From: Girardia tigrina
Lineage: Eukaryota
DNA: 51,266 bases
Assembly: GCA_001938485.1 (NCBI GenBank)
Contig: MQRK01225404.1
Coordinates: 1-51,266, forward strand
Direction: 5' to 3'
Below, piece after piece: positions 1,345 to 38,022 of the stretch (positions within the stretch are counted from its first letter, which is position 1; each line of letters starts with the position of its first letter). The notes under the pieces are model-generated. The model searched no databases. It saw only the letters and a list, made by a program, of their open reading frames with translations, and was not told where the DNA came from. A program made the translations under genes and the position numbers.

Positions 1345-1999
1345 GAGGGGAACTGACATTGGCAAAGCGATGAATTGGATTGTTGAGAGACGCTCTGGTA
1401 GAGGTAAATGTCTTTTGTCTCTGATATTGTTAACAAGGAATTTGACTGACGAAATTGTAGCAGAAAATGCACTTAGTCAAGTTAAGTTATAGGTTTTTTA
1501 GAAATCCTTTTTGTATCGCTGGTATCAAGTCCATGAAAAAATGGCCATCTTCGTTGTCTTGTTTGCAAAGAGTTACGAACCATTAAATGATTTTCAATTT
1601 TGTCTTAAGTTTAATTGAAAATATAGACTTACTTTTTATCAAATTTGTTTTTCATACATTCTCACTGTTTTTGTTTCCGAAATTTGTTGATCTTGGGTAA
1701 TTGAATTAAATCTGTTGTATTTTTAGATAATTGAAATGCTAAGGTCTATTGCATGTTTTCTATAGTTCGAATTAAAAACAAAACGGTTTTTACTTCTTCA
1801 TTCATTACAAAGTAAAACATTTCATTTATATTTTTGATAAATAATATTTTAAAATTAGCGAAAAGATTAAATCGGAAAAATAAACTTTACACAGATATTT
1901 TTTAATTAGGAAGTTGTGAATAAAAATAATTGTAATTAATTAAAATTAAATTAAATTAGTTTTAATAAATACACTATAATTAAATAAATTACAATTGTG

Positions 2000-4109
2000 A
2001 TGAATAATTTGATAAATTTGATTTCGATAATTTCGAATGATAAACCAAATGAAAAAAATGAAATCCTGAAAAAAGTTAGTTAATTTATTAATTTACGATG
2101 ATTAATTTGCTTTTTCGAAATAGATAGAAGAAACTCCAGGAGCTTCGAGGCATTTAATGGACATTTGTATGTTAAGAGAATTGAAAGAGGATGTGAAAAG
2201 AGAAGCTGCCTCCCTTTTGAAGAAGCACGTTCATCATTATTGGTTTTATGAAAATTATTGTTCAAAGTTCCTTAATGAAACAGATAAATTATATATAAAA
2301 TCAAAGATTATTGATGGAATTGTGAAATCAGAAGGTGTTATTCAAAAAGATCTTCTATTAACATATGGAAAGATTATCTACTATGATTTTCCAAAACCTT
2401 GGTATGATTTACCAAACGAAATTATAAACATATTTGAAAGTAAAAATCATGACGATTGGATTTCGGGTTATTTGTGCTTCCAACAGTTATTTAAAAAGTA
2501 TTCATATTATTCATACTTAGATACTTGTTCTTCTATCATAAATGCAATAATGAAGAAACATTTACAAGTTTTGTTATATGATGATTCAGAAAGGGGAATT
2601 ACTCTACAAAAACATATTCTAAAATTACGTAACTTGTTCTCAAGATTTGAGAGGAACGTTTCGAAGGAAGAGTTTCAATTTTGGGTCCGATCTGCTGGTT
2701 TCATAAGCATGAGAGTTATCAACGAAAGGTCCACACAGTCTATGTTAATGAAGTGTCAGAAATGGGCAATTAAATTACTCTCAAAATTTATTGACATGTC
2801 CCTGTACAAAGATCAATCAAAAAATTCAGACTTGCATAATTCGGAGTCGTTTCCTATAACTATTATTCTGATATTGAACCAAATCTGTGTTAATTACTCG
2901 AAAGGAAGCTATATTCATCCAAAAGTGTTTGATAGTATCATTAAATGCTATTTAAATTTTATAAGATGTTCTAATTTACGGAAATATTTGCAACCATATT
3001 TTATTAATTTATTTCAAACTTTAATTTTCGGAATTCTCAGTAAGGAAGAAGAAGCAGCAAACCTCTCGTTGCAAAACGACCCAGAGAAGTTCTGTCAACT
3101 ATTATTCTACAATTCACAAAAATATAAAAGTACTTCAAAAATTGAAGATATGATAATTGAGGTCTCTGAATGTGATGAAACATTTTTAGAATCTTTATTT
3201 CGTTTAATCCTCAAAAGGTTTCGTTGTCAAGAAATCACACCCTTTACTAAACGTATCTATTTTAATGTTATAGGAACATTATCAAAATTATTTTCGAAAC
3301 AAAAACATTTCACTCGACCTCTTGAATTATTTATTGTTGAATTTGTGATTCCGGAACTAAAGTCGTCTGAAATATTGAGGAGATACAAAGCTTGCTGGTT
3401 AATTAAACAATTGGCTGCCATACATATTCAAGACAAAAGTCTTGTAGAATTATTGGTTTCTGAATTAATGTTTTTATTAATACATGACCAAGATCTGCCG
3501 GTCATGGTTATGGCAAGCGATGCTCTTGTAAAATTATTTTATGCCAGTAAGGAAGACAACGAAACATCCATCGTTACACATTTACGCCCAGTTGTACTTC
3601 AACTTTTAGAATTAATGAAAATAACACATAATGAAATATTTATTTCTATATTTAGCAAGTTAACTAAAATTTTCAGATTAGAAATCGTTCCGTATTCGTT
3701 GGATATAATGAAATATTCAAAGGAAATACTGATCAAAATTTGTTCAGAAGACTCAAATTTCCAAAGAAACAAATTAATTGAAATTTTTGAAACTTTCGAA
3801 GATATATCAAAGTCTCCAGTATATGAAGTGCCTTATTGTTTTAATTCAGATCCCGTAATTAGAAGAATCGCTCAGTATATTTTTGAAGAAAATTCGGATA
3901 TTGAATATTCTGAATCTGACTGTGATTGTTGCGAATGGAAATCACGAAAACTTATAATAAATTCTGACATTGAAAATTCTGAATCTGATACAGATAGTTA
4001 CGCGTCGAAACTGCAAAAGACAAAACAGCGACAGTCAAAAAAACGAAAAGCAAAACTGCGAAAGATAAAAGCTAGAACAAAAAATAGTGGAAGACAAAAC
4101 AGCCATTAA
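2000..4109 (+). CDS. Importin-7/8-like (importin-beta family, HEAT repeat) paralog A; exons 2000-2074 and 2124-4109 (~686 aa); C-terminally truncated, with an acidic then basic tail
   Basis: IBN_N-like VKREAASLLKKHVHHYW, DFPKPW, KCQKWAIKLL, NDPEKF, FVIPELKS..LRRYKACW, DLPVMVMASDAL. GTTAGT...AAATAG 49-nt phase-0 intron joins MNNLINLIS...ILKK in frame to IEETPGASRHLMDIC. Confidence 0.85.
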
Positions 4110-4399
4110 TAATCACCAGAAAATGTTATATAAACAAAGATAAACAAAACCATACAAAATTATAATAACCACTTGTTATAACAAAATCAAATATCAAAAC
4201 TTTTTTATCTAATTTAATTTTTGTGGAACAAATAAATGTAGATATATTCCGAATTATAATTGTTATGATTCTCCGTAATCATAAACTGAAATTATAAGGA
4301 AGACAAATTAAAGGAATTCAAAATTGTATTTTTAATAAAATCGGTTTATTTAAACAAGAAATAATTAATATCTTTTAATTTTTTTAAATATATAATTTA

Positions 4400-4830
4400 A
4401 TTTTAAGAAATTAAATAAATCATTATATTTCTCCACCCTCAAAAACACCATGGGTGGAGATGAAAGCCGGTTTGAGTCGACTCGAAATGCATAAGGAGAC
4501 CCGTCATCTAACACCTTGCATTTGCGGATTTTGTTACCGTATTGTCGATGATTATAACACAAAGTTCCTTGTTTACCGTTCAATTTTCGTTGTAATTGTA
4601 GTATTTTAATTTGATGTGTTCGAGATCTGTTTGTGTTCCATTGTCGGCGGGCCGGTTGATGATATGATCGAAATATCTGGCGGTGCTTGATTGAGTATTA
4701 AATCTGCTAATTCGTCAAAATCGTCGATGTCTTTAGCCGTGTGGCCAATGATGCGGCAACAAATTTGAATTGGAAGTTCCTGCAGGAAATTGAATTTAAA
4801 TATTTCCTGACAGTCAATACTAGCGTTGCT
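4400..4830 (-). mobile_element. Degenerate Gypsy gag fragment
   Basis: LCYNHRQYGNKIRKC knuckle and FLQELP...DELADLI, similar to the gag at 16751-17530. Confidence 0.65.
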
Positions 4831-4834
4831 GAAG

Positions 4835-6387
4835 GTTTTTTTTTGCGAAAATCAAAATATCATCCAAATATACGACTGCTTCTTACCAATTCAAATCTTC
4901 CAAAAATTTTACTATTAGCTCCTGAAAAGTTGCTGGGGCCGCAGCAATTCCAAAAGGCATTTGTACTTTGTTGAGAATGCCGTCTTAATCTTTGATTCAT
5001 CTTTTAATTCTACTTGATGGTAAGTGTTTCCCAAATCGATAGTACTAAAGTATTTTGCCCCATTTAGTGTATTAAACATATCGTCTACATTTGGCATTGG
5101 GGACGGGGGTCGGACGGTTATTTTATTTAACTGACGAAAATCTACACACACTCGAATATCTTGCTTTTTTCCAAACACATACTAAAGGAAAGTTCCAAGG
5201 AGACTTACACTTTTCGATAATATCGTTTTCTTTAAAGTGTTTTATAATATCATCTAGTTTCTATTCAAAATGTTTCGGTTGTCTATACGGTTTTACCAGT
5301 ACTTTAAAATTTCCTGACTTTAAAATTTCTTCTTTTATCTTCTGGAATTTTTCTATTCCGCAGTTTTTTTGTTCTCTTTTTATTTTCCACTGTTTTCCAT
5401 TCATTTTCTCTTTTTGTATTATATACTGCCACTGGTGCATTTCTTTTCTTTTTCTCATGTTCAAACATTCTTGTTGTATTTCTTCAATTTCATCAGATTT
5501 CGTGATACCTTGAATGGTTATTTGTTTTTGTACATCATCATCATCATCATCTATCAAGTTAACGTGTACTAAATTCGATAGTTCTTTCTTACCCAGTTTT
5601 TCTCTACCAATTTCTCTATTAGTTCGTCTGCCTTTCTAAATATTATTGTGGGATCGCTGGATCCAATTCTCAAATCTAACATTTCTTTCATTATACCTAG
5701 TACGGTTTTTTCCTTGGAGAACGCTGCTCTTAACTTTTCTTCCCATGTTTTACCGGGTGCTGTTTCATACTTAATTATTGCCTCTGGAGTCATGTATGGC
5801 GTGACTAAAAAGATTTTTCTTTCCTCAGAAAATCCCATTATCTTCGCGTATCTGTTGAAATTCTTCATAAATGCTTTCACTTTTGTCTCAGATCCGTCAA
5901 ATGTTTCTGAACCTTTGATATTCGGAGTCACATTGTCGTGTGTCGCCATATTACGAACACCAATTTGACTTTTCATATTTTTATTTAAACAAAAATTTTG
6001 ATTGTCCTTAAGACTATCTTTGTCAAAGCTTTCGTACGTTTGCATTCTAAACTACATTGATTAATGAATTAATTCTTATTATTTTTTAGCGCATGGAAAA
6101 ATAAATATTTTAATAAAATATTTACTCAAAACTTATTGGATAATAATTAAAATGGTTATTAATTATTGTAAAAATACTAATTTAATTTATTTATTAAAAA
6201 TTGTAAAAACTAATTAACTTATTTAAAATTTTACAATTATTTGAAACTAAAAATAAATTTAAAGATAACATATTTTTAGATAAAAAGAATTCAAATATTA
6301 ATCATCCATCTTGGTAGGAGAAACACATTTCCAAATCAACATACACATTCAAACACAAAACATCAAACATTCAAAATATTCCTCACA
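4835..6387 (-). mobile_element. Gypsy remnant: 5' LTR (family A, ~6093-6387), gag-like ORF 5569-6045, frameshifted RT
   Basis: KPYRQP, SPWNFP, RVCVDFRQLNK, FSTIDL, KTAF, MPFG, YLDD (~4860); the LTR starts TGTGAGG on the minus strand. Confidence 0.85.
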
Positions 6388-8330
6388 TGTATGAATGTGT
6401 TTGTGATTGTATGTTTGATGATGTGTTTGAAAATAATCCTTTAGAGATGTGTAGATTTGATAATGAGCTTGAAAATAATGATGAAATATGTGCTAGTTTG
6501 GGTACAGAAAATGAGAAAAATATAAACAAGAATACGGAAGATGTACTTATATTACCGAAGTTTAGCATAAATTATAAAGAATTGAAAGGACGACCAAGTA
6601 TAGAGTTCCGAATAAAGAATAAAAATGCCAAGTGACTAATAGATACAGAATCCTGAGTCAATGTTATTAAAGCAGAGATAATCAAAGATATGAAAGATGT
6701 CAGGATCAAAGAAACTAAAGACGTATACAATCTTATGCAAAGGTTTGTGAACGCTTGTTGTTAAATTGTCTTTTGCACCCAACTGCAATTATATTGACAA
6801 AAGCACACCAAAATACAAAGATTTTTTTAGAACATTATAATACGACACAAATTTATCAAAACTTGTCATAACTGGCACATAAACTTCGAAAAACCAGTGT
6901 ATATTAAGTATTTTGTGTGTTTACCCTTATTTTTGAGAAACGAACGAATTCGGTCAGGCATTGAACGGCATTATTTTTTACAATAGTCTGGTGACACTTT
7001 TTGAGTCCAAACATTTTCCACTGCTTTGATCATGTCCTGCAGGGAATTTTGGTACATGGCAGCAACCTGTTTCTTCACCTGGGTTCATGTATTCCTAATC
7101 GGATTGAGATCCGGTGAGTTGCCTGTCCAAGGACCAAAAATTTGGAAGCCTGACTGCGATAACCCCTCTCGAACAGCCTTGACATTGTGGCATGCTGAAA
7201 GAAAAGGCAACACGATCTGAAATATTTTTTTGCAGACAGCAGTGGTTTTTGCTGGCTTTGAGGACCTGAGACCTCAATCAGCTAATCTGCGACGGATTAA
7301 CCATTTGCTGATGGTTTGCAAGTGTTGGGACTGCCTACTGTGAAGTTGCACTGCTGTAGCATGAGGGGTTCCTTTAACCACCTGTAAAATTTCTCTGTCG
7401 TGTCTTTGACTGTTTGACCTTGGACGACCAGATCGAGATCTTGAACATAAGAAACCAGTCTCTCTTTTTCTCTGAACAGTCTGACACACAAATCCAAAAG
7501 AAACTTTACGAGTTGTAGCTATTTGTCGATAAGAAACGCCATGCTTCTGCAATGCTAAAACTGCTGCACACTATTCTGTTGTTAGCTCCTTGCCGTGGAC
7601 AGGCATGATTCTAAAATAAATAATGACAATTTATAACTTGAAAAGTAATAAAAATAAAATATGCATTTAATCTTTTAAATGGTTTATGTATACTTAACAA
7701 GAAATACACAAAAATGCAGTGCAACAACAAAAAGCAGTATAGAAGCAAGCGTTCACAAACTTTGCCCCTGACGTACATTGTTCAAATCCATCATATACTA
7801 ATGAATTACAGGTAATACAAGACAATCCAACTGACGAGGATAGACTGAGGAGAATAAAAGAGCTGTTTGAAAACAAAATTGGAAATAAACTAATGGAACC
7901 TTTAACAGAATATAAAGTAATATTTATGACCGACAAATAGGATATGAGGAAGACGTCGCTGACCAAACACAAGATGGAAACGCATGGAGAACCAGTTTTT
8001 GTGAAACCTTATCGACAACCACAACATTTCGGGGATAAACTGGACGATATTATTAGAAATAATGAAGAAATCGATATTTTCGAAAAGTGCAGATCACCGT
8101 AGAATTTTCTTCTGGTTAGTGTTTGGAAAAAGGAGAAACAGGATTTTCGAGTGTGTGTAGATTTTCTGCAATTGAACAAAATCACCGTTAAACCTGCATT
8201 TCCAATGCCAAATGTTGAGGAAAGGCTGAATACACTAGATGGAGCAAAGTATTTTAGCACAATCGATTTAGAAAACGCATACTAACAAGTGAAACTTGAG
8301 GATGATTTAAAAATCAAAACAGCCTTCATC
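6388..8330 (+). mobile_element. Gypsy protease-RT remnant (related to 4835-5560) interrupted by a Tc1 element
   Basis: LIDTES protease-site relic; ETKDV|HCSN rejoins across the Tc1 insertion; KPYRQP, RVCVDFLQLNK, FSTIDL, KIKTAF. Confidence 0.85.
6728..7773 (-). mobile_element. Tc1-like DNA transposon, internally deleted
   Basis: Imperfect TIRs sharing GCAAAG(G)TTTGTGAACGCTTG, TA on both flanks; HTH with RSGRPR; NSPDLNPI motif; the middle of the DDE domain is missing. Confidence 0.9.
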
Positions 8331-8639
8331 TGATTTTTTTGAAAGTTATCGATTAACTTCGATATCCAACCACAAACTACTTGACTTTGGAGTTTCAGCT
8401 CAATGCCGGAAAAGCCCCATGCATATACTAAGTTTAACCATGTGGTGCTCGCATATTAAAAATAAACGATTGAAAATAAAAAATTATTATTGGTGTGTAA
8501 AATAAATCATAATTGTTTTAATAATTACGTAAACTGTACAGTCTTAAATTTGGATTTAAACAAATAAATTTTATTGTTGCTCGTTTTCATTTGTTTTTGG
8601 CTGTCCGACATTTACCTTCAAATACATGGATGAAATCAG

Positions 8640-8930
8640 TGGGGCCTGATCTACCGCCGCCTCATTCGGTGGATCGGTACTCGGCTGATTTCCTCGGACT
8701 CGTCGAGTGGACCATCGATTGATACGGGCCTAGAGGTACGGCCAACCGTAATCTCTACCGTCCCGAACATCATCGATCGCCGCGTACTTGGTGTACCCGC
8801 TCTAGACTTGTTGCAGTAACGGCACAAACCGACACACCGACCAATGGGCACTGGAACCAATCGATCACGCCCGCCAGAGAGTCCCTCCGCAAATAAGATG
8901 TGCCGGTCGCTGCAGAACTATCCGTTGGCC
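8640..8930 (+). mobile_element. Probable LTR-retrotransposon PBS and GC-rich 5' leader
   Basis: AT-rich LTR-like tract ending ...TCA, then GTGGGGCC (PBS-like), then GC-rich non-coding sequence. Confidence 0.4.
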
Positions 8931-9200
8931 GACACATCAAAGCATGTAACTGCCGCTTTAAACTCTTCTAAATTTATGTGCCTACAGTCATTGTCTTTAC
9001 AAAGCCATGAAGCATCCTCAATTCTTTGTTTATTGACATCTAAACAAACTTTTAATGCCAACGTACAGGTATCACACCAAGCAGTGGCTCTACCATCGTT
9101 TTTCACAGACCAAGTCCTGCTGGCGAAATCGTTTGCTTTGATCTTTTCAATCGCTTTCTTCAACTCTTCGTCAATTTTACCTTCAAATTACTGGTAGATT
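8930..9200 (-). mobile_element. Gypsy RNase H fragment
   Basis: AWCDTC...IEDASWL..D.RHINLEEFKAA aligns with IWTDAS...IEDATGL...HINRSELDAA at 26039-26287. Confidence 0.7.
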
Positions 9201-9301
9201 GTCGTTTAAGAAATTATTGTAGTTCACTAGAAGATTGTAATAAATTTAAAGCAATGACGGTAAATGACAGGAGATGATTTATGAAGAATCGTTTGTTTGT
9301 T

Positions 9302-9480
9302 TGTGAGGAATGTTTTGAATTTTTTGTTGTTTTATTTGGTGCATGTTGTATGTAGATTCAGATTGTGCCTCTTCTACCCAGATGGTTGAGTGATATTTTC
9401 TTTGATTCCAAATAATTAAAAATAATTTAATTTAATTTTAAAGTAAAAAGATTTAAAATAATTTTCGAATGTAATATTTA
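9302..9480 (+). repeat. LTR family A copy
   Basis: TGTGAGGAATGTTTTGAA...CTCTTCTACCCAGATGG, the reverse complement of the other copies. Confidence 0.7.
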
Positions 9481-11269
9481 ATTTTTTGTTGCATTCATAC
9501 GTCCGAACCAGTTGCGTACGCCAACTCTAAAGATTACAATTCATAATACGAAGAAAATAATACAACATAATAAAATAAAACCGTCCTGATAAAACAAGAA
9601 TTATTTAAATATCAATAATCAAATAAAAGCCATAAAACATAAAAATACATACAAGACAAAATATATTTAAAATAAAATTATCACGAATTGAGACCGTGCT
9701 GAATTTTGTTGTCACCGGAATAGCGGAAAGAATCGGTGAAATCCAGTTATCTGCGGTCTGTGTTGGGACGTTGTTTCCAGAGCCATAAATGGATCCCATT
9801 GCAGTGAGACGATGAAATCAAACGATTTTAACTACAAATCTTACCCAAATAATATCATATTGGATACTCCGGTCTTAGCTCTTGAAGCCCACCTCCCAAG
9901 TCTGGGAACAAACCCTTCGACAATCTTAAAAGAAACAGTAAAGGTTCAATGAGTATCATCAAAAAAGTATTAAAACTTACGTTTCACAAAAATCGATAAT
10001 CATTGTTCATTATGAATGGTCCTGAAACAATAACATAGTGTATAACAATTACATTCCAAGAAAATCAACAATAACTTATCAAATAAGATACACAACATAT
10101 AAGACCGGGGCAGGAAATAATTTATCCATATTACGCATAACGGGTTGGTTGATTATTGACGAAGTGTGGTAGATATTGGCCGGTGTATATGTACACCACA
10201 TAAGTCGATCCGGTGATCTCGGGTGATACACAAAGATCATCCAATATATAAATCAGCTTGGATTTTACAAAAATCAATCAAATCAAATCAAAATTAAATT
10301 TAACAGGTACAGATCGTCTGGTATTTTATTTTATTTTGTTTGCTTTCTTTGATTCATGAATATTGTAATCGTTATTAAGCACCAGAATAAATATTTATTA
10401 TGAATTTGGTTTATTTATTTATTATAAATTTAATTAATCTCTTTATTGATAATTTACTTAATCTTACTATGAATTTAAACCCGTTTTATGTGAGTTACGG
10501 AAGTCTAACCGAATTAAATATTTAATTATGTATCTTTACAATTTAAATTTAAATTAGTAAGTAAAAGTTTGGGAAGGATTTGGTTACATTTTGGTTATTT
10601 CTTGACTTACATTCTTAATTTTTATATACCTGAGTTATAATTTACACATAAATATAGATATCTTAACCTACGGAACTTACAACTGTAAATATTGTTCTTT
10701 TATCAGTCTAAGTTAGAATTCTCAACTAGCTAAAGTAGGGCAGTATCCAATACGATCATGTTCTTTATTCATAGAATATCTCTGACTGTTGATTGTGTAC
10801 AAGTTGCGAAGGATGTTCAGTAGTTCCAACTCTGGAGACGTTGGTGACCCGCCTCTGAGTTCAAATGATTCCTCCTTGGACTTTAACGCGTAGTCGAGGC
10901 ACATCTCCAATCTTTGTAATTAATTTGATTGGTAATGGAATTCATAATAATCATGTCTTGTAACGTTTTTATATATATTTATCGTGTGCTGTAATTTTAA
11001 TTATTATATTATTAACCAGTATTATTATTAAAACATTGAATTATTACTAATGATCGAAGAAGATCAAGATTTTAATCGTGCTCTGTACTGTAGTGCTCAG
11101 AAAAACTAACACTTAAAAAATTGAAAAATTGAAAAAACTTTCAATTTTGATTTTTGTTTATTTAAATTAAAAGTGTGAAAATCGAGTGCACAAATTTTGA
11201 AACCTCAAATAAATATTATTGGTGTTGAATTTTCTCTTTTTCTTTCTTTTTTTCCACAAATAATGAGAC

Positions 11270-11930
11270 ATATGTGGTCTCTGAACTCCACACCACTAGC
11301 GGAACTGATCCGACCGACTACGATGCCAGAACATATCGACACGCTTGTCGCATTCAATGAAACCGCCCGGTGTCGCGAGAATGGATTGTGGAGACTACCC
11401 ACAGTTCCAAGTGGAACCAACTGTCCCACGTTCGGCGGTGTAAAACGGAGGACCAGTGTACACCGACCGCAATACCGACCCAAAGCGACCCGTCTACTGG
11501 TGGGCACTCGACCTGCGGGTATCAAGAGCGATAGCGAAACGATCGGTTGTTCTTTCCCGCCGGTGAACCTCAGCGGGAAATTAAGAGGTGCTGGTCGCCA
11601 CCACTCAGCCCAGCAGCCGGTGCCCCATATACTATGATATTATTTTATCGTGTGTTGTATTCCTAATAATTATTGATTAAATTGTTGCTAACGAGTTAGA
11701 TTCGTATTTTGTATGGATCGGCTTCTATCCACGAATATGCTTGTCTTTGATAAAGAGATTTTAATTACATATTTATTTTCCGGATTTATTTTGTAGTTTA
11801 TCATACCGTTTATTAAAATATTTGGACTAAACTAAAGTGTGGGTTTAGTGCCATATATGATTTAAAAGATTTTACAATTTAACTGAATGTGAATTAATTT
11901 TGAACGCTCTTAGAGTTCTAACTACTGACA
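11270..11930 (-). mobile_element. Probable LTR, PBS (TGGGGCACC) and GC-rich leader of an LTR element
   Basis: Minus-strand TGGGG at ~11624 marks a sharp AT-rich/GC-rich boundary; no credible ORF. Confidence 0.4.
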
Positions 11931-11999
11931 TTTTATCCTTTTGATAGAAGGATACTTTACATTTATCTTTCAAATTATTCAATATAATTTAAAAAATTT

Positions 12000-12900
12000 A
12001 TAATCCTCAGTAAATTTCTCTTGTCTCATTTCAAATTCATCAGAAGCAATACGCAATACTTTCCTTGATGTTTTTGGCAATGATAAGTTGCTTATTATGT
12101 GTTGGGCGCACATGCGTCGAATTGTAATGAAATATATCTATCTCTTAGAAGACGATGAGTCCAGAAAACCTGTGGACGAAGATATTGATTTTTTGCAGTT
12201 GTCTTCGAATACAGAGATCTTTTTGAAAGCAGTCGAATGTTTCCAAAAAATGGAAGAAATAAAAAATGTTTCTAAAATACATGAATAAAATGGGGTTTTC
12301 TACTCATAAGAACTGGTACGAAGGCGCCCGAATCCTCACGCCATCTACAAACAATGCGTTGGAGTCATTGAATTTGATAATACAAAATGAGCATACATTT
12401 CGAGAAACACTGCCACTGTCTCGTTTTCTCTTGAAGCAATGGTCAAAAATGTGTTTTCATGGCGATAAGTCATTCAGCAAAAGCACAACGATTTTCTTAA
12501 AAGATTTGATGGTAATATATGATTGGGCAAAAGAGAAGAACGACGTGAGCTCAAATGAGACTGAAGTTGGCAACGTTTACTATGTACCAAAAGGGCACGA
12601 GATTTTTTGGCCACCCCTGACCAAATCAAGTATGTCGAGTCGAAAGTTTGGGCAACTTTCGACCAGTTCAGGAGGCGAGCCTTTGCTATCTGGATTGTTA
12701 CTCTGCATCATGACATTGAGCAATGGCGACACGGCTCATGCACTTGCCCTTACTTTCTCAAACATTTTATATGCAAACATCTTTTTGGCCTAGAAATTCG
12801 TTTAAAACTCATAAAACCACCAGCTGAAGCAAAACACGCACCGATTGGAGAGAAAAGAAAGCGTGGTCGTCCTAAAAAGCGACAAAAGCTTTACTCATTG
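12000..12900 (+). mobile_element. MULE-like transposase pseudogene with SWIM zinc finger
   Basis: MCWAH, WYEG..PSTNNALES, CTCPYFLKHFICKH (SWIM), KRKRGRPKK AT-hook; frameshifted. Confidence 0.85.
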
Positions 12901-13299
12901 AATAATTTTTTTTCAATTTCAGCTTTTTTTATTTTATATGTTAATAATTCTTTAACAATTATCTTTTTATATTTGTACAATTGAATTAGTAATGAATACT
13001 TAATATGTTTAATAAATACTACTTATAAATACTTATAATATTGTTCATAAATACTGATAAATATATAATTTGTTACTTAGACTATTATATTTTAATACTT
13101 CATAAATGATTTGTATACTGAAAAATGTTTTTTTCTTTCGGATCAAAATTCATTCAAAATATTTTTTTAAAATTAATAAAATACGAATAAATCAATTAAA
13201 AAATACTGAGAGTTTTATTTTTTTTACTGAAAGTAAAAATACAGGCCGAAGAAATTCATCTTTGCAAATCAGAATTTAAATATTTGAGTGAAGTTAGAG

Positions 13300-13440
13300 T
13301 GGATCAGTGTTTGGTTATCAATGCAAAAAATTCAAGGGCGGGGTATATTTTCTCTGACGCTTCATTAAATGCATATGTGGCTTGTGCCTATGTGATAGAG
13401 GAAACGATGTTTGGAAACGAACGTATAATATTTGTAAATA
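13300..13440 (+). mobile_element. BEL/Pao RNase H fragment
   Basis: IFSDASLNAYVACAYV motif. Confidence 0.7.
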
Positions 13441-14038
13441 TTTTTAGATTTGTTTTAGCTAACTAATTTTCAAGGTTAGAAAAAACTAGTATATAAACAA
13501 TTATTATTTCAGTATTATTCACAACAAAAAATTTCGGACAAAAAATTATACTGCAGACCTTACTAAAGTTTTTAAAACTTCATCATGTATTACGATAATC
13601 TTTTTTATTTAATTTTTGTTAACCAATCTAGTATCCTGTAAAGGAGAAATATTGAAATTAGACTTTCAGGTATCGCGCGTTCTAAATTGATATTGATTTG
13701 GTTGATTGAGTGTGCTTCAAATATTTGATTTAGTGATAAAGTTTTGAAATTCAGTTTTTTGCTCAAGTTGTCATTTGCAAATAAAGTTTATTAAAAGGAA
13801 TTATATTATATAAGAATTTTATATTATTGTTGGAAGAAACCTTTTGGTCGATTTGGAGTTAGATTAGTAGTTTAATATAAGCAAAGATAAAAACGAGATT
13901 TAATTGTAATACCCAACAATATATATATATATATATTAATAATTTCGAATTTTATAATTTTTATTTAAATAAATCAATCAAATAAAGAAAACTTTGTTTT
14001 GAGCATTTTATTCCTTTTTTAATTTAAGTCAATAAAAA

Positions 14039-14194
14039 ATGTCTCGACGAGAAAAATGAGGAAAATGATTGGGAAAGGGAGGAGACTCCGGAAAGCGTTT
14101 GAGAAACAACATCCAGGGCAACACCAAGCCGGTCATGAGGCGACTGGCGTGAAAAGGCTGTGTGAAGAGAATCTCCGGTTTGATCTAAGAAGAG
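14039..14194 (+). pseudogene. H4: Histone H4 pseudogene (N-terminal half)
   Basis: Reads [45 protein letters not shown] against H4 [54 protein letters not shown]; four stop codons. Confidence 0.93.
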
Positions 14195-14381
14195 AGCATT
14201 CAGTCATCTATCCTGAAAATCGTCCGCAATTTATTGAGGGCTTCAGAAAATGCGCAACGGTCCTCTTTAGGGCCAAAGTTGTTGATTGTAGGACGAGTGT
14301 CTTCATTCCAACGAGACAAAAAATAACAATATCTGTATACATTTACACCATTTTTTCTTAAGCCAAATGAAATGTTATAAA

Positions 14382-14614
14382 ATGAATCGCGCACATCCGC
14401 TAGAAGTGAAAAATGTAACATTTTACGTATGTGTAGTTATTTGGATATTTATTTATGCATATATGTGTAGGTATATATATTCGATCCATTTATGAAAATC
14501 CTTCTTGAAAATGCGGTCGAAATCGATAAAGATAATCAAGAGATCAATATCGGGACGATCGTGATCCGTGGCATCAGCATCAATATTCTCGAGGCGGTCG
14601 ATCGCGTCTTTTGA
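14382..14614 (+). pseudogene. SNRPG: Degenerate Sm protein G copy lacking the first Sm1 strands
   Basis: MNRAHPLEVKN matches MSKAHPPELKK; FDPFMKILLENAVE...NIGTIVIRGISINILEAVDRV matches the SmG C-terminus; possible GT-AG intron 14415-14470. Confidence 0.85.
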
Positions 14615-14670
14615 TCGTTTGCGTAAAAGTGTGTTGTAATATATGAAATGAAAATGCGAATTTTAGCTTT

Positions 14671-15321
14671 TTATTGATCGATTTTAAGATTATTTATTGT
14701 TCGATTCTTAGATTTTATTTTACAAAATAAAAGTTTTCTTAAGTAAATTTGAGGGAAATCTTTTGAAGAGTGGGTGCCACTTCGTCTATGTGAGACCTGA
14801 GCTGGCCCAATCGTCGTAAATCGATCCTGGGAATTGGATCGAGAGAAACTGCTAAAAAAATAATAGCCTACCGGTTTCGGATGGCGTTGGGATATAGTTG
14901 GGATATCTTGCCCGACAGCTCCGGAACGAAGTCGATTTGACTTGAGGGCGATCGAGTTGCCGTTAGTGCCGTTGATATGATTGGTGAGGTTGTTACCGTT
15001 GTTGTTGGCCGCCGATTGATTCAAATGAGACAAATTGAAGTCGGCCACGGGCGACTGGTTGAGTAAACTGACGCTGTTCCCACTGGTCGAGTTGGTGTGA
15101 TCGTTGCTGAAATTTGACCATTGGAAAGTTTGATCGGGTTCGGGAATCGAATGCATTTTCGAGACAAAAACGTTGATTACAGGCGAATAATTCCGATAGG
15201 TGTACAAGAAAATATTCAACAATTGACTGTCGATTTTGTTCGAGGGATCAGTGAAACATTCGATAATATCGTCTATTGTCAGTAGATGACCAATCGTTCG
15301 AATTTCACTCAGAAATTTCAA
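14671..15321 (-). CDS. RasGEF N-terminal (REM)-like fragment followed by an Asn/Ser-rich region; no ATG before the domain, probably a gene fragment
   Basis: TIDDIIECFTDP..IDSQLLNIFLYTYRNY resembles the REM consensus (L..L.....D..F...FL.TYR.F). Confidence 0.5.
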   Translation of the reverse strand: MKFLSEIRTIGHLLTIDDIIECFTDPSNKIDSQLLNIFLYTYRNYSPVINVFVSKMHSIPEPDQTFQWSNFSNDHTNSTSGNSVSLLNQSPVADFNLSHLNQSAANNNGNNLTNHINGTNGNSIALKSNRLRSGAVGQDIPTISQRHPKPVGYYFFSSFSRSNSQDRFTTIGPAQVSHRRSGTHSSKDFPQIYLRKLLFCKIKSKNRTINNLKIDQ

Positions 15322-15449
15322 TTAAATTTCATTAAATTCGATAAAGGATTTGTTGAGAAAATTTGTCAAAATAGAAAAACATTTTAAATCTGTACAAAGA
15401 TTTTATTTACAATCACAAAAGATATATATTTTTTTGAAAGTAACGACCA

Positions 15450-17545
15450 AATTGAAATTATTCAAACAACATAATTATAGTGTTAATTTTTTTTAAGTTT
15501 TTTTTTCGATACTTTTTTCTGTTCTAATGTTGTCGATTCACTCCATTGTTTTTTTTAAAAAATTAAATTTCGCATTTTTACACATTTTTTTGTTATTAAA
15601 TTTTGATTGTTAAAATTAAATTAATAAATTGTGATCACTACATCAGCCCCCAACGATAAATGCGGAGCATGATGCGAATTATGGTTTGGTGGGGAAGACC
15701 TGTGAATCGTTGAACTGGACAAATGGTGCAAAGGAGATGGACTGTCGTAATAAAGATGGAGGTTTATTGTTGTATTGGGGGTTATAATTAATGTGGTTGG
15801 TGTTGTGATTGATGTGGTTGTGGATACCTACACGGAACAACGGTTTGGCGATTCTGCAGCTGTTAACGCCATTTACATCATTCGCTACGGTTTTGAGGAT
15901 TGGAACCAGTTCTTCTTGCTTGTGGTGGACGCATCCTGGAGCACAGTCCTTGGCGTCCTTTCTAAATTGGGCGTGCCAGATGCACACTTCGCTAATCTGA
16001 AGTTCAGATTCGATACAGGGAAATATGCACCCCGGTTGATACTTCTTCGCTTCCTTGTCGAATCGACGGTGAAAATAACACATCGTAGCGTTCGAGAATA
16101 AACCGGGTGGGGGTGTCGGTGTCCCTCCATGACATTGAGCGGCTAATGTTCTTCCTGTGTGAATTTGCAATTTCCGAGTCACGGTATTTTTGAACGGCGT
16201 GTGTTTATCTCGCAGGTCCTTATGATTGCGGTTGATGTCGATTGGTGCTTCCTGGATTGTGTGGATGCCAGCAAGAGTCGATGTCACGTGTTGGCTGTCG
16301 GAAATATGATCTTTGAAGATTAGTTTACGATTCCTGCAGTCGACAAGAATGTTAAAATGGTCGAAAAAATCGGCACCTAGAATGGGTTGTGTGACATCGG
16401 CCACAACAAAGGTCCAATTGAAGGTTTGGTTGAGCTGTTTCAATGAAAATGATAATTGAAGCTTTCCAAACGTTTGGACTGTGGANNNNNNNNNNNNNNN
16501 NNNNNNNNNNNNNNNNNNNNNNNNNNNNNNNNNNNNNNNNNNNNNNNNNNNNNNNNNNNNNNNNNNNNNNNNNNNNNNNNNNNNNNNNNNNNNNNNNNNN
16601 NNNNNNNNNNGCATCATAAGTGAATAAACCACAGCAGCTGTCCTCGTCCTTGTCATCTGCTGCTTGGATAGAAGGCGAAACTAGTTTTTTTGGCGGTTCA
16701 TGTTTGCAACCGAGAGCGCATGATCTGGCTTGATCGGCGTAATTGTAATGTCAAATGCACATGTCCGTCATGTCAAGTATTGAGCGGTCGCCTTTCCACG
16801 CGCAGCCGGGTTGGCATTTCTTAGCCTTGGTGCCAAATTTGCGGTGATAATAGCAGAGAGGAGTTTGTTGTTTCGTCGGGTTCTTTCGGTGGTCATGTTG
16901 ACCGTTGGATCTGCAGCGGTGTCGGTTGTCCGATCCCGACTTCAACAATGCGACAGTGGATGCCAGATCAGACATGATGGTGGCCCTCTGAGCTGTCAGT
17001 GCCTCGATTTTTCCGTTCTGTTGTGTCACCGAGTCCGGATTTTCGCATCCGGTGGTGGGTGGGGACAGGTTGAAACAAGTGTCGGAACTGGAGAGCACTG
17101 TTTCGGTAATTTTATCTGCGATTTCTGCCAGTTCTTTCAGATCAGTGGTGCTGGTGGCTGCGAGAATAGCATTGTGAATCAGGGGAAGCGATTGAATGAA
17201 AAATTTCTTCAAAATCGCTGAATCCTGTGTAATCCCTGGTTGGATCAACTCAAGATCGCTGATAACCCGTTGTAAGAATTTTGATGGCTTCAGTATGCCG
17301 ATTTGTTGTGTCTTGAAGTAGTTTTCAAATACAACATCAAATTTTGGCTCGTGAGCCATCATAATTTTTCGCCGAAGTTGGTTATACGGTTCGGCGTGCT
17401 GTATGATTGCTGCAAGATGTGGTGCAAGCATTTGGAGTTGTTCTGCTGGAATCGCACTGAGAAGGTTCTGGAACAGACTGTTCTGCGACTTGATGCGGAT
17501 CGCCTTGAACCTGACATCCATGAGGTCCAACCATACTTTGGGTGA
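15450..17545 (-). mobile_element. Gypsy gag-protease element without RT or integrase; PPT at 15643-15653 and 3' LTR starting TGTAGTG at 15642
   Basis: gag with LKELAEIADKI and CYYHRKFGTKAKKCQPGC; protease WTFVVADVTQPILGADFF; left LTR boundary approximate. Confidence 0.85.
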
Positions 17546-17559
17546 AAAAAAATATAATA

Positions 17560-18600
17560 ACGTTTAAGACTATAGAGAATAATTACACATGGAAAGTGAA
17601 CTGTCTGATTCAAACAACTTATTCTAACTGGAAAAGATTAATACTCGTTTTTGCATGGATTAGACGTTTAATTCATAATTTAAAAAAGGTTCTTCTTAAT
17701 CAAAAATTTGAAAATATCTGTGTAGAATAATACAAGCAGTCAAAAATGGAAATCATAAAAAGACAGTAAATGACTGATTTTAGTGAGGACATTGAGAACC
17801 AAAAACAGGGAAAAGTTATTCCTAAAAAGTTTATACCGATAAAGTTAAATCCTTTTGTAGACCCAAATGGTGTGTTAAAGAGTTGAAGTCGTTTGGATAG
17901 TTCAACTTGGTTATTAAGTGAATAAAAATTGCCGATAATTATAAAACGTAAAAGTTGGTGTACCATGAAATAAATTGTCAAGAAAAACATTATGGTGGAG
18001 TAGACTTCATATTTAGTAGAATTAATCAAGAATTTTGGTTTACTGAAGAACGAGACGTAATTAAATTTAAATCATTTTATAAATCTTAAATCATTGTATA
18101 AAATGTAATAGAGATATAGCTAAGGGAATAAATCAACAAGTCGTGGTTACCTTTGTTTCGACTAGATCCACAGTGGAGAAGTTTACTAAAAGTTGCTAAA
18201 GATTATGGTGACCTCTTGATACCATACTAGGTCGCGGATACCACCGAGAAAAGAGATATCTTTGCTTATTCTCTTGTTTACTCACTTGAGTGGTGCATTT
18301 AGAACTCGTAAAAAATCTGGAGACTGAATTGTTCTTGAGAGCATTTTAAAGATTTATTAACAGAAAGGGAACAGCAAAATTGATAATTAAGGATAACGGA
18401 ACAAACTTTTTTGCAACAGCAAACGATGAAAACATGTTTTGAGTAGTTACTTATTCTCTTAAGAACCACATATACCAAAATAAGATTACTTGACTTCAAA
18501 CAATTTTATCAGAAGTCGAAAATATGCTGAACAGTCTTTCTATTGTGTAATGCGTACTGATGTAGCCTATGATCTGGCGTTAAAACCTTATCATTTTCTA
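17560..18600 (+). mobile_element. Degenerate BEL/Pao pol (integrase region)
   Basis: YSNWKRL, LNPFVDPNGVL, VHLE, FKRFINRKG..DNGTNF and SEVENMLN across several frames. Confidence 0.8.
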
Positions 18601-19099
18601 TGATGATATAAATAATTATAAAAAACAATATTAAAATAATATTAAAAATTTGAATCCCGAACATTGGTAAAAATCAGGGTACACTCACCAGCTGTACGAG
18701 TTAATATTATGTCCGATCTTGTACTTTTTCCATTGAGAAATGAAGAATAGTAGTGGTCGAAACCCTTGTCTCAGACTATTTGAAAAAAAATTGCTTGACG
18801 AAAATTTCAAGTTAATATTAATGAAAAATAAAATGACTTGAACATTCATGTAAGATCGTGTGATATGAAATACACAAGACTATAACATATAAACATCATG
18901 CAAAGAAACCAAGAAACCAAATAATTAAGTAAAACATAAACAATATACAAAGTTGAATTTTGATTTTAAAAAAAAGTTTAATAAATGGATTTTGAGGAAA
19001 TGATTAAATTGGATTAACGAGAAGAGATTTGTTTAAATTTGTGTGAAATTTTCATTAATAAACTTTAGTATGAAATTATGATTTATAATCCTGAATCAA

Positions 19100-19700
19100 A
19101 CATTATCGAAGATCATGTTGATGCAACTAATATGACAATCAGCGCTACATTGGTAACAATTGTTACTAGAAAACTTCCTTTTAAAGGTGAGTACTTGGTT
19201 ACATTCGACGAGGATTACTAATTTTCTTTCAATTTGAGGGAATCACGAGATCCAAGTGTGAGATCATTGTTCAATGCTTATTGCACAAGGACGTGAAAGA
19301 GAGATACAAAGCTGTCAACAAGACAATTGGGGATGCAAAGACCGTTTGCGAAAATATTTTGTCGGTCCACGTCATTATTCGAAATTTGAACTGAAGTTTG
19401 CGGCTCTAAAATGAAAGATAATATACCAGAAAATTTGTTAGAAAAGATAGAAAAACTCAGGACGAATACTAAAACACAATCTCACTAATAAAAGTATCAT
19501 GGAAACCTTATTATAAAACTTTTGAAACGACATGGATATAAAGACAGAACAACGAGTGAATAAGCTAAAAAGAGTAGAAGAGATAAAAAAAGAAGATTAT
19601 AATATGTGAGTGCGAAGAAGCATTACAAGATGTTAACAACGTGGTATAACAAGAAAATTACAAGTAAAATTGATAAATAAATGGACATACATATATAGCG
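19100..19700 (+). mobile_element. Possible decayed retrotransposon gag
   Basis: Fragmentary frame KLPFKGE...IIVQCLLHKDVKERYK is loosely gag-like; many stops. Confidence 0.25.
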
Positions 19701-19899
19701 AGGAATATTGCGTTACTTTACTTACATAACCAATAATTCCACAAGAACATAAGCAGAGTATACATATAGGTAAGACTATATTTTCAAGTAATTTTAAACC
19801 AACATTAAAAATAGTTTAATAGTTAGTGCTTCTTTACTTACGAGACAACGAAGATTGTTGTTTTACATGTTAGTTTTACTGGCAATAAAAATGAACTTT

Positions 19900-20290
19900 T
19901 TTCAGTAATCCCACTCACAACAAAAACCATTTGTTCAAGTAAGCGAACCATCAACATTCAGGAATATATGATTTGTTTAGATGAGATTAGGTGAGATTAG
20001 AAAATATTTGTGTACTACTTAATCCAAATGACACAAATACCGCTAATGTTTACTGACAACAGTTGATAAATTTGAGACATTTATTTTATGAAAACAGTTT
20101 TATTCGACAGAAAAAACAGCGTAAAGTGATTTTCCGGAAAAAAACTACGAAGAAATAAAAAGAGAGCTCAAAAAATTTTATTGTATCAAAAGGTAAAACT
20201 ATTTTTTCAATGCAGTTCATAAATTGCCAGAAAGGTGGTCGAAAGTCAAAGTTAATCACTAAAAATACTTTTATTACAATAAAATCGACG
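19900..20290 (+). mobile_element. Mariner transposase remnant
   Basis: PNDTNTANVY*QQL and FFNAVHKLPERWSKV (mariner C-terminal motif). Confidence 0.7.
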
Positions 20291-20614
20291 ATTATTCAGA
20301 AATAAACGTATTTCTAGTGTAAAAATACTAAAAAATAAGTTATATATTCTAAAAATAAAGTATTTTAATTTTAATTCAATCGTATTTCTCATACAAACTT
20401 TTTAACATTTTTTTTAATATTTTTAAACATATTTTCATTAAATCGTAAAATATTTTTGATAAATAAAATTTAAAATTAGCGGAAAAATTTAAAGGGAAAA
20501 ATTGACTTTACACAGAAATTGTTTAATTAAGAAGTTATAAATAAAAATAATTATACTTAATTAAATTAAATTAAATTAAATAAATACACTATAATTAAAT
20601 AAATTACAATTCTG

Positions 20615-22520
20615 ATGAATAATTTGATAAATTTGATTTCGATAATTTCGAATGATAAACTAAATGAAAAAAATGAAATCCTGAAAAAAGTTTGTTAATT
20701 TATTAATTTATGATGATTAATTTGCTTTTTCGAAATAGATAGAAGAAACTGCAGGAGTTTCGAGGCATTTAATGGACATTTGTATGTTAAGAGAATTGAA
20801 AGAGGATGTGAAAAGAGAAGCTGCCTCCCTTTTGAAGAAGCACGTTCATCATTATTGGTTTTATGAAAATTATTGTTCAAAGTTCCTTAATGAAACAGAT
20901 AAATTATATATAAAATCAAAGATTATTGATGGAATTGTGAAATCAGAAGGTGTTATTCAAAAAGATCTTCTATTAACCTATGGAAAGATTACCGAAAATG
21001 ACTTTCCAAGAAAATGGAAAGATTTACCAAACGAAATTATCAAAGTTTTTGATAGTAAAAACCAGGAACATTGGATTTCGGGTTATCTGTGCTTGCTAAA
21101 GCCGTTTCAAGTATTAAGTTATCACAATAAATTCAAAAATAGCCCTTTAACAGAAGAAACAATATGTACCATAATGAAGAAACACTTAGAATTTTTCTTA
21201 AGTGATGATTCAGAAAGTGGAATTACTCTACAAAAACATATTTTAAAATTACGTTACTTTTCGTTAAGATTTGAAAAGGACATTCCGAAGGAAGAGTTTC
21301 AATTTTGGGTCCGATCTGCTGGTATCATAAGCATGAGAGTTATCAACGAAAGATCCACACAGTCTATGTTAACGAAGTGTCAGAAATGGGCAGTTAATTT
21401 ACTTTCAAAATTTATTGACACTTACAAACGTCGAACTTTATCACAAAATTCGGATTCGGGGATTTCGGAGTCCTTTCCGACAACTATTATTTTGATATTG
21501 AACAAAATCTGTGATAATTATTCGAACGGAAACTATGCTCATCCAAAAGTGTTTGATACTATCATTAATTGCTATTTATCGTTTATAGAATGCTCTAATT
21601 TACTGAAATATTTGCAACCATATTTGATTAATTTCTTTCAAACTTTCATATTCGGAATTCTCATTGATGAAGAAGTAAAGAACCTTTTATTGCAAAACGA
21701 CCCAGAGAAGTTCTGTCACATCATATACTACAATGCACGGAAATATATATATAATTTGAAAATTACAGAAATGATAATTGTGATCTCTAAATGTGATAAA
21801 ACATTTCTAGAATCTTTATTTCATTTAATCATCAAAAGGTTTCGTTGTCAAGAAATCACACCCTTTACTAAACGTATCTATTTTAATGTCATAGGAACAT
21901 TATCAGAATCATTTTCAAAACTAAACCATTTCACTCGACAACTTGAATTATTTATTCTTGAATTTGTGATTCCGGAACTAAAGTCGTCTGAAATATTGAT
22001 GAGAACCAAAGCTTGCTGGTTAATTAAACAATTGGCTGTCATACATTTACAAGACAAAAGTCTTGTAGAATTATTGGTTTCTGAATTAATGTTTTTATTC
22101 AAACATGATCAAGATTTGGCGGTCATGGTTATTGCAAGCGATGCTTTTGTGAAATTATTAGTAGTCAGTAAGGAAGACAACGAAGCAGCCCTCGATGCAT
22201 TAGTACGTCCAGTTGTCCTACAACTTCTAAAATTAATGAAAATAACACATAACGAAATATTAAATTATATATTCAGCCAAATTACCAGCAATTTCAGATT
22301 AGAAATCGTTTCGTATTCGTTGGATAGAGCGATAAATTTAAAGAAAATAGTGCAAAAAATGTATTGCGAACATTCCAATTTCAATAAAAAAAAATTATTT
22401 GAAATTTATGAAAGCTTGGAAGACAATTGCCATTCTTCATTGTATAAATTGTTAGATATTTTTAAATCAGATCCAAAAATTCTCGAAATCGCCCAACAAA
22501 TTTTTGAAATAAAACTCTGA
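20615..22520 (+). CDS. Importin-7/8-like paralog B; exons 20615-20689 and 20739-22520 (~618 aa)
   Basis: Collinear with paralog A, same 49-nt GT-AG intron; a +1 frameshift near 22511 removes the tail. Confidence 0.85.
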
Positions 22521-22951
22521 CACTGAAAATTCTGCATCTGACACAGATTATTTCACATCAAAACTGCGAAGACAAAACAATGAAAGACAAAACCGCGAAT
22601 AATAATCTCCAGAAAATGGCATATAAATAAAGATAAACAAAAACAGACAATATTATCTTGGCACCTGATATAATGAAATCAAATATAAAAACTTTTTTAT
22701 CTAATTTAATTTTTATGGAACAAATAAATGTAGATATAGCCAAAATTATAATCATAAAAAATTCTATTTGAAAAAGTAAATAATGTCAAAGGATATAAAC
22801 AAAGTATTTTATTAAATACAAATTGTGCTACATAAATATTTTCAGATCATCGGACTTCAGAAAAAAATTGTGTACATGTCCTTGGAGATCATCTAGCTTT
22901 AATGTTCACGTCCATAAGCAGCTTCCGCATAATTATTAGTAGGGGTTAAAA

Positions 22952-34440: not shown

Positions 34441-35260
34441 TGTTATGCCGAATTCGTGAACTGGGCAAAAAAATTGCGGAATTCACAAATTAAAAAATAT
34501 TTTGCCGATTTTGTGAATTCGGCAACAGTTCGCTGAAATTGTATAATTGTCGAATTAATGAACGAGTCAATTTTTGTCAAATTCACTAACTATATGAAAT
34601 TTTTAATTTAAAATGAAAATTTCTTAATTTAAAATGAAAGATTATGTATTTAATATGAACAAAATATCAATTTAATATGAAAAACAATCAAATTAACGTG
34701 AAAGTTTGTATTTAATATAAAAAAAATATGTATTTAATTTGAAAAATTATCAATTTTATATCAAAAAATCTGTATTTAATATGATAAAAATATCAATTTG
34801 TCATTAAAAATTATCAATTTAATATGAAAAAATAAATTAAATAGGAAAAAATCTTAATTTATTATGCAAAATAGACTCCAAATGTAACATTTTATTCATA
34901 GTTAATAAAACGTCTTCCTTGGTGGCAAGATGAATTGCAAACGTTTGCATTTTAAAAGCATTTTATCATAGTAAAATGATATTTTTCATATTAAATTTAT
35001 ATTTTTTCGTATTAAATACAATTTTTATATTAAATCGATATTTTTAAATTAAATTGATATTTTTTCATATTAAACTGATATTTTTTTCATATTTAATCAA
35101 TATTTTATCATATTAAATTGATATTTTTCATATTAAATACAAACTTTGTCATATTAAATACATATTTTTTTCATATAAAATAATCAATTTCAAATATTAA
35201 TTTCATAATTTCATAAAAGTTTTTTTAAAAAGTTGCCTAATTCACGAATTCGGCATAACA
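34441..35260. mobile_element. Foldback MITE with TGT...ACA ends (Ginger-like)
   Basis: 20-bp TIR TGTTATGCCGAATTCGTGAA, TATA on both sides, mirrored ATTTAATATGAAAA repeats in the arms; splits the 3' LTR. Confidence 0.85.
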
Positions 35261-37276: not shown

Positions 37277-37753
37277 TCAGGCCCATAGGAACGCGCCCCA
37301 ATCTTTAATCTCCCAATCGTCAATTGTGGTCCTTAAGAGGACCGTATTTCTTTCGCAATTATTTGAATCAGTTGAGGAACCACCGATGAAATAATCTGGT
37401 TGAAACAGTTTCCCAAGATTCGAATTCAGTAGGTAATCGAGAGTGGTACTATTCAATTCAACTATGACGCTGATCAGCACACACTTTCCATGAATTCCAG
37501 AAGCAAAGTAAACGTAAATTCTACGTAATTGCAAATCACCGTCACTTTCGTAAACAGCAGTGGTCGATTTGACAATGTGTTCGATGATGGTTATTTTACA
37601 AAATGTCGTTCCAATACTGTTTCCAAAACTTTGAAATATTCTCATTAATTCATTTTTAGTAGGTGCTGAAATTTCGTCAGTTTCTTTGATATACAATCTC
37701 CGATCGGGAATTCTTACATGATTATCTTCAAATATCTTCATAAAATAATCCAT
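37277..37753 (-). CDS. Orphan 158-aa ORF (from ATG 37753), function unknown
   Basis: Uninterrupted ORF with globular-looking composition in very AT-rich DNA; no recognisable motif. Confidence 0.5.
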   Translation of the reverse strand: MDYFMKIFEDNHVRIPDRRLYIKETDEISAPTKNELMRIFQSFGNSIGTTFCKITIIEHIVKSTTAVYESDGDLQLRRIYVYFASGIHGKCVLISVIVELNSTTLDYLLNSNLGKLFQPDYFIGGSSTDSNNCERNTVLLRTTIDDWEIKDWGAFLWA

Positions 37754-38022
37754 AATCAGAATGAATAATTTTCTTTGATAATTAAATATATTTAATATTT
37801 TTCTCAAATAATTAAAAAATCGATATCTTCATATATTTTTTATTCGAAATCAAAATTAATTAAAAATAAAACATTTAAACAAATCACATTTCTGTTCATC
37901 ATTTAAACACTTTTTTCTTTACATTTTTCATAAAAACTTTTCTTACATATATACAAAAGTAATTTTAAGTAATAATTTTCTTTATTAATTTTGCAGTAAT
38001 TTTTTACTCTAAATAAATATAA

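Follow-up and report, generated by a model that had tools for sequence, protein, structure and literature searches.

Nuclear-transport duplicates and the locus studied

Karyopherin-betas are usually single-copy and conserved, and the described proteins against which the genes of this report have to be set are importin-7 and importin-8 (RanBP7/8; moleskin in Drosophila). According to recent structural work (PMC13542611, bioRxiv 2025.08.04.668392), the B helices of the HEAT repeats make a concave surface that binds cargo and RanGTP, the A helices bind FG nucleoporins, and in the revised model the globular domain of histone H1 is in contact with B helices in HEAT repeats 2-8. Fast-evolving duplicates of nuclear-transport genes are known already from Drosophila, to which they are reported to be largely confined among insects (PMC8645118). 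The DNA analyzed here, referred to as the window, is the whole stretch of 51,266 nucleotides of Girardia tigrina contig MQRK01225404.1, and it carries two same-strand, two-exon importin-7 derivatives, gene A (686 aa) and gene B (618 aa), that are 85% identical across 2.1 kb. In the reading that we prefer, to which we give about an even chance of being right, both genes are truncated members of a birth-and-death importin-7 family, the predicted cargo face of which is likely diversifying, and they likely serve to bind, with a specificity that varies between copies and probably as decoys, a nuclear cargo that changes rapidly. The new element is the expanded importin-7 family itself; no report of such a family was found in a literature search whose reach did not extend to subscription papers and supplements.

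The importin-7 family in the genome

The first-pass annotation of the window had described A and B as a pair of truncated paralogs and had suggested counting the family and searching for its parent. A search of the organism's own genome (a 1.43-Gb assembly in 255,254 contigs) returned 67 matches and recovered a conserved parent as well as 28 loci with at least 290 matched codons, 22 of which are free of stops in the shared region; many short broken family fragments are also present. Several loci look like alleles by their flanks (C163894/C253210, C117092/C235454a and the C105950 group), so that the number of about twenty copies is a rough figure. Both genes are indeed truncated, but they do not form a lone pair, as most family members are full length (970-1070 aa, 51-57% identity to A). 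The truncated subclade consists of A, B, C105950, C240735 and the frameshifted C227559. Three small contig sets of the same species contained no match to gene A or to a full-length member, a result that has no bearing on expression.

The conventional importin-7 parent, C198766, has an exon 2 of 992 aa and shows 70% identity to its close ortholog P0002 and 37-39% to named animal importin-7 proteins. The family is about 30% identical to this parent, has a HEAT 6 loop that is 8 aa shorter, and differs in the G+C content at third codon positions (GC3), which amounts to 0.27-0.30 in the family versus 0.75 in the parent; the family value is close to the genome background. The family intron occupies the position of the parent's first intron, with a length of 49-50 nt in five modelled members versus 83 nt in the parent, and the upstream region is common among the copies, the roughly 80 bases 5' of the ATG being 77-92% identical in full-length members. 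Owing to the retained intron and the shared upstream region, an RNA-mediated (retrocopy) origin was rejected. A shared flanking mobile element was likewise considered as the carrier and dismissed, since paralog homology mostly stops 200-300 bases beyond the genes without a visible common carrier, terminal repeats not having been searched.

In the trees, the family and an older single copy, C188159, group with the importin-7 of this lineage, adjoining tapeworm importin-7, with an exact branching that is unsure because of long branches. Accelerated evolution is clear in the family, as its stem spans about 1.0 substitutions per site versus 0.19 for the parent branch, which is about five times as much. 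A topology with the family and the parent as one clade was rejected (p-AU of the approximately unbiased test 0.0008; 0.04 with C188159), the date being unsure for the same long branches. C188159 (L032:1908-4439) is itself a very divergent importin-7 copy with an open frame of about 830 aa, 32% identical to the parent and 25% to the family. A comparison of gene A with protein libraries yielded one match at 19% identity (8,000 candidates scored), and a full-length member compared with 1.84 billion representatives gave nothing above 36%, this hit being an ordinary importin-7; both collections may hold few proteins of close relatives. Judged by sequence and trees, the family consists of importin-7 paralogs by descent.

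Structure and truncation of genes A and B

All features of the two genes are located on the plus strand. Gene A is preceded by a region common to B and other members (1828..1999, starting where the blastn alignment of A and B begins) that is likely to comprise the promoter and the 5' untranslated region. An in-frame splice model, with the intron position of the parent, defines exon 1 with 25 codons of HEAT 1 (2000..2074), a 49-nt GT..AG intron (2075..2123) and exon 2 (2124..4109), which encodes HEAT 2 to helix 14A followed by a non-importin tail. The corresponding model of gene B comprises exon 1 (20615..20689), a 49-nt intron (20690..20738) and an open exon 2 (20739..22520) with the stop directly after helix 14A. 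The exon-2 ATG is internal (Met37) and not the start of the protein, and B ends at 22520 and not at 22602. The 3' region common to both genes (4110..4260) contains AATAAA at 4231-4236, and the region downstream of B (22521..22752, with AATAAA at 22723-22728) is homologous to the tail and 3' end of A, with deletions. The tail of A includes a basic stretch (4038..4082), presumably resembling a nuclear localization signal, that occurs in A-type copies and not in B; its loss in B indicates that the tail is not essential to the truncated subclade. Because the sequence between the two genes includes an N gap (16486-16610), their spacing depends on scaffolding.

Gene A matches Xenopus importin-7 with E=2e-29. 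Its AlphaFold model (pLDDT 80.6, pTM 0.74, calculated with orthologs in the alignment) shows a HEAT solenoid that extends from repeat 2 to helix 14A and continues into a tail of low confidence; the best Foldseek match is importin-7 (9qej), and a comparison with importin-9 gave a VIA Z of 29.0, a root mean square deviation of 5.2 and 565 aligned positions. With exon 2 alone, the IBN_N profile scores 19.8 bits in A and 18.4 bits in B, below the curated cut-off of 21, two full-length members reaching 28-29 and the parent 48.

Both genes end after helix 14A, so that HEAT 15-20 are absent along with the large acidic loop, a part that the full-length paralogs keep. The C-terminal residues of the parent (about 380, including the large acidic loop) and the C-terminal third of three full-length paralogs were unmatched in the window, except for a 16-aa match inside gene A, and the same C-terminal query does match full-length family loci elsewhere in the genome. 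The truncation by about the last third, as asserted in the first-pass annotation, is thus real, and no downstream exons that would complete an importin-7 were found in the window. Since the truncation and the 3' end are common to copies on different contigs, they represent an inherited state. The LKN motif, which has a presumed role in Ran binding, reads LKK in A and B (K kept, N lost) and is mostly kept as LKN in full-length members. Importin-7 furthermore carries a C-terminal GGxxF/FxFG tail that binds importin-beta (PMC6436938). Neither A, B nor the full-length members have this tail, but the parent and its two close orthologs, P0002 and P0003, are without it as well, and its absence is therefore not specific to the family. 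Importin-7 orthologs of tapeworm, insect, brachiopod and shark keep a GGYxF/FxFG tail, which the parent (L031:2741-5716, minus strand), P0002 and P0003 lack.

Exchange of sequence between the paralogs

The divergence of A and B is distributed very unevenly. Exon 1 differs at one of 75 bases and the intron at two of 49, in line with the near identity of the intron noticed before, and a tract encoding aa 33-105 (2145..2363 in A, 20760-20978 in B) differs at a single one of 219 nt: codons 33-104 are identical and codon 105 carries a synonymous difference, which bears out the observation that the 73 codons following the exon-2 ATG show one synonymous change. This tract is likely a recent conversion tract. 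It is followed by the four radically different patches that had been pointed out, all of which were recovered, namely patch 1 (2376..2405, end of helix 3B and loop), patch 2 (2481..2534, end of helix 4B and loop), patch 3 (2796..2822, end of helix 6B and loop, of uncertain register) and patch 4 (3096..3137, HEAT 8 insertion and start of 8B). They align to HDYPNRW, YEYK, FERYG and DPYEYIR of Xenopus importin-7, positions that are conserved across 33 importin-7 orthologs, so that the patches do fall at normally conserved loops as claimed. The clustering exceeds chance, as none of 10,000 codon shuffles matched the observed variance between codon windows or the identical run of 72 codons, the longest shuffled run being 39 codons.

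In the patches, the synonymous rate (dS) is raised along with the nonsynonymous rate (dN), with dS values of 0.8-1.0 in three 25-codon windows versus 0 in the tract. This was the first sign that the patchwork reflects differing ancestry of segments and not selection alone. Because of the exchange, the pairwise dN/dS of 0.71 (dS 0.23, dN 0.16 overall) is uninformative. An alignment of 14 open-frame sequences and 578 codons revealed that the nearest neighbour of a sequence switches from segment to segment and that 14 of 91 pairs share identical runs longer than in any of 2,500 permutations. At patch 3, B is closest to C240735, with three differences at 36 positions versus 17 to A, and across patches 1-2 it is about 75% identical to every paralog; it differs from all sampled paralogs at patch 2, and no donor above 77% over the stretch of patches 1-2 was detected among them. 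Two pairs are identical across their 3' halves, for which alleles, recent conversion or assembly collapse are possible. From the aligned copies we conclude that the patchwork arises from sequence exchange between paralogs. The proposal of a diversifying importin-7-derived family consequently holds with respect to origin, family and gene conversion, whereas the contrast between A and B is largely an exchange pattern. The functions suggested along with it, as decoys, restriction factors or drive components, are putative.

Location of change on the predicted protein

For the structural mapping, helix limits were taken from the predicted model, A and B labels were assigned by HEAT alternation, and polar or core status was derived from the 33 orthologs; a candidate site is one with a posterior above 0.5 in the codon models described below. 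The variable sites fall on the predicted cargo/Ran face, a mapping that had been recommended at the outset. In the C-terminal half of the B helices together with the loop that comes next, 31 of 112 positions are candidate sites, versus three of 160 for polar A-helix positions and A-B loops (p=1e-10). Ortholog conservation is reversed (0.67 on the face versus 0.58 on the outer side, p=5e-4), and the dN/dS of the classes amounts to 1.0-1.3 for the face as against 0.5-0.57 for the outer side and about 0.6 for the core. Sites such as 303/306 and 581/585/588 show the helical spacing of a single face. Of the strongly conserved polar residues, 32% are retained in the family versus 72% in the parent. 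On the predicted model, the family appears to keep the scaffold and the outer face and to rewrite the gripping surface.

HIV-1 integrase cross-links to Lys163, Lys262, Ser282 and Ser402 of importin-7 (PMC13399220). By hand mapping through the Xenopus alignment, Lys163 falls in patch 2 and Ser282 in patch 3, which is suggestive only.

Tests for positive selection

Selection was analyzed with our own MG94-type codon models on the 14-sequence alignment. The whole family has a mean dN/dS of 0.77, with about 45% of the sites near 0.2. Twice the log-likelihood difference (2dL) between models M8a and M8 was 68 with one tree, 58 with gap masking and 44 with ten segment trees; M1a against M2a gave 20-27 with multi-base changes allowed. 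Strict masking, by which all indel-prone loops were removed (408 codons), still gave 17-22, with all 8-10 candidate sites on the face. Among the 30 top-ranking sites, the nonsynonymous rate is 1.93 and the synonymous rate 1.11, and 25 of these sites lie on the face, where 98 neutral-face simulations reached at most 24. Of the null runs that had no shared rate variation, one of 64 (0/32 and 1/32) attained the rate observed for the top 30 sites, and nulls with shared variation usually raised the synonymous rate of the top sites too (mean 2.3 versus 1.11 observed). In the truncated subclade, about a third of the sites are near a dN/dS of 0, and four truncated genes spanning about 0.86 substitutions per codon have no stop in about 590 codons, although a neutral change makes a stop 7% of the time.

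Several results weigh against a diversifying face and its proposed role. A shared per-site rate multiplier drops the whole-gene 2dL to 3.5, which is not significant, and that of the face to 7.4. Neutral-face simulations with shared rate variation give 2dL values up to 19, with the observed 14.5 equalled or exceeded in one of nine and 12.5 in four of nine, and in three of 34 such runs the synonymous rate at the top sites was as low as observed. As a class, the face is never significantly above 1, and its synonymous rate is 1.2-1.4 times higher. The truncated subclade alone has a mean dN/dS of 0.92 (core 0.83) and an M1a/M2a value of 6.2 that falls to 1.9 with multi-base changes; an even dN/dS of about 1, which had been named as a finding that would speak against the family's diversification, is approached in this mean, which does not differ from 1, but not in its distribution over sites. 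The 14 sequences were picked for open frames and include probable alleles, and the class of half B helices plus loops was drawn after the candidate sites had been seen, the plainer contrast of all polar B versus A positions being 1.06 versus 0.51. Amplification with no apparent function is seen for further genes of this genome (a second karyopherin, Ran), and the cargo is a guess, as nothing here points to a particular one. Positive selection on part of the face is reasonably likely. The signal persists with segment trees, with multi-base changes allowed and under strict masking but is lost with shared site-rate variation, and selection is regarded as probable, not proven.

Proposed explanation and alternatives

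The family arose by duplication of the importin-7 of this lineage together with its intron. In the explanation that we favour, selected point mutations would create new inner-face patches, and gene conversion would reshuffle these patches and homogenise the scaffold. Full-length members, in which LKN and the acidic loop are mostly retained, plausibly still import, with altered cargo specificity. Truncated members would grip cargo without normal delivery or release: A and B are without the C-terminal arch and the acidic loop and read LKK, from which we infer binding as decoys. The cargo may be a transposon or viral protein, for instance an integrase, in this transposon-rich genome, a guess based on the basic, DNA-binding cargo that importin-7 takes up on this face. 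A bolder version, which we consider rather unlikely, regards the family as an import receptor turned into an NLR-like intracellular recognition repertoire, in which about twenty copies, with a concave face diversified through selection and conversion, catch nucleus-bound transposon or viral proteins, with A and B as dead-end traps.

The raised synonymous rate of the face, its class dN/dS of about 1 and the significance lost under shared rate variation would also follow from a loss of cargo and Ran binding in the copies, with neutral drift of the inner face, a scaffold and an outer face retained for some generic function such as nucleoporin binding or chaperoning, and a patchwork made by conversion alone. 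The low retention of conserved polar residues is in agreement with such relaxation, which we hold to be somewhat unlikely, because the top sites show an excess that is nonsynonymous only, beyond the reach of nearly all nulls without shared variation, and an unused surface would be expected to evolve like the outer face (0.5) and not twofold above it. A more conventional decay, with A and B as young pseudogenes or partly as assembly chimeras, could be suspected in such a fragmented heterozygous assembly, in which several loci look allelic, two pairs coincide in their 3' halves, the truncated subclade has a dN/dS of 0.92 and one of its members is frameshifted. However, the terminal branch of B, at 0.29 substitutions per codon, has accumulated no stop, although 7% per change would predict about 12, a third of the sites are near a dN/dS of 0, truncation and 3' end are common to different contigs, and chimerism cannot put substitutions on one helix face; this explanation is very improbable.

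In a further alternative, germline-specialised transport or a meiotic-drive arms race, the copies would be driver or suppressor components or germline importers that have acquired new endogenous cargo, a role put forward for the Drosophila duplicates. It has a precedent in the recurrent fast-evolving duplicates of Ran, Ntf-2 and importin-alpha and in truncated Sd-RanGAP (PMC8645118), and intronless Ran copies exist in this genome too. We consider it distinctly unlikely, since most of the Drosophila cases are single retrocopies and concern other components, and the Ran copies examined here have an altered P-loop or switch and resemble processed pseudogenes.

Other transport genes and features of the window

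The second karyopherin accounts for 19 of 30 fetched IBN_N loci (G000 L072-L096, e.g. L075:1-663, minus strand), which are N-terminal copies with 80-90% identity. Most of them are interrupted by a stop or a frameshift in the first 250 codons or so, in contrast to the open importin-7 copies. We take this gene to be importin-11-like from its motif; its PDB matches are Cse1 and Kap120. Genes that we presume from their motifs to be importin-beta-, CRM1- and Cse1-like gave one IBN_N match each. For Ran, three intronless copies (L099/L128, L101/L129 and L107), two of them with P-loop or switch changes, were detected along with at least two intron-bearing genes (copies L130-L135) and more diverged Ran-like loci at 57-77%.

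Within the window, an intact-looking bHLH gene (45239-46015, plus strand; PF00010, E=1e-15) is presumably atonal-8-like. An open reading frame between A and B (14671-15321, minus strand) has a weak RasGEF_N match and is probably one exon of a RasGEF gene. Remnants similar to retrotransposon gag/pol lie at 3-518, 4430-6050, 15679-17563, 24284-24604 and 50571-50993; DUF7041 matches below the cut-off at 16751-17563, and the remnants other than this segment are named by motifs that we assume to be diagnostic. An imperfect palindromic, internally repeated region of about 620 bp was detected by self-BLAST at 34592-35215, and an open frame of 183 aa at 37277-37828 (minus strand) has only a very weak DUF3557 match.

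Comparison with known systems

The family resembles importin-7 and importin-8 in sequence, in the HEAT solenoid, in an N-terminus that is like IBN_N, though below the cut-off in exon 2 of A and B, and in the first intron of the parent. It differs from them in being multi-copy, in its distance from the parent, in the shortened HEAT 6 loop and in an inner face that is hypervariable instead of conserved. A and B moreover depart by their truncation and their LKK and do not qualify as a working, full-length importin-7 with about 20 HEAT repeats and an acidic loop.

The leucine-rich repeats (LRRs) of plant NLR proteins and the lamprey VLRs combine a conserved repeat scaffold with a hypervariable concave face, paralog exchange and birth and death, and in these respects they are similar to the family described here. 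There is no homology between these systems; the family is built of HEAT repeats of a housekeeping transporter without a signalling domain, and its immune role is only putative.

The Drosophila transport duplicates (Ran, Ntf-2 and importin-alpha retrogenes, Apollo/Artemis and Sd-RanGAP) share with this family the fast-evolving copies beside a conserved parent, the truncations and the turnover (PMC8645118). They are mostly RNA-mediated, few in number, testis-expressed and derived from other components, whereas the family of G. tigrina descends from importin-7, has retained the intron and comprises about twenty copies that exchange sequence with one another. With a family outside Drosophila whose variation is specific to the cargo face, the long-standing idea of a genetic conflict over nuclear import can be tested directly, and the copies represent a natural library for how importin cargo specificity can be rewired.

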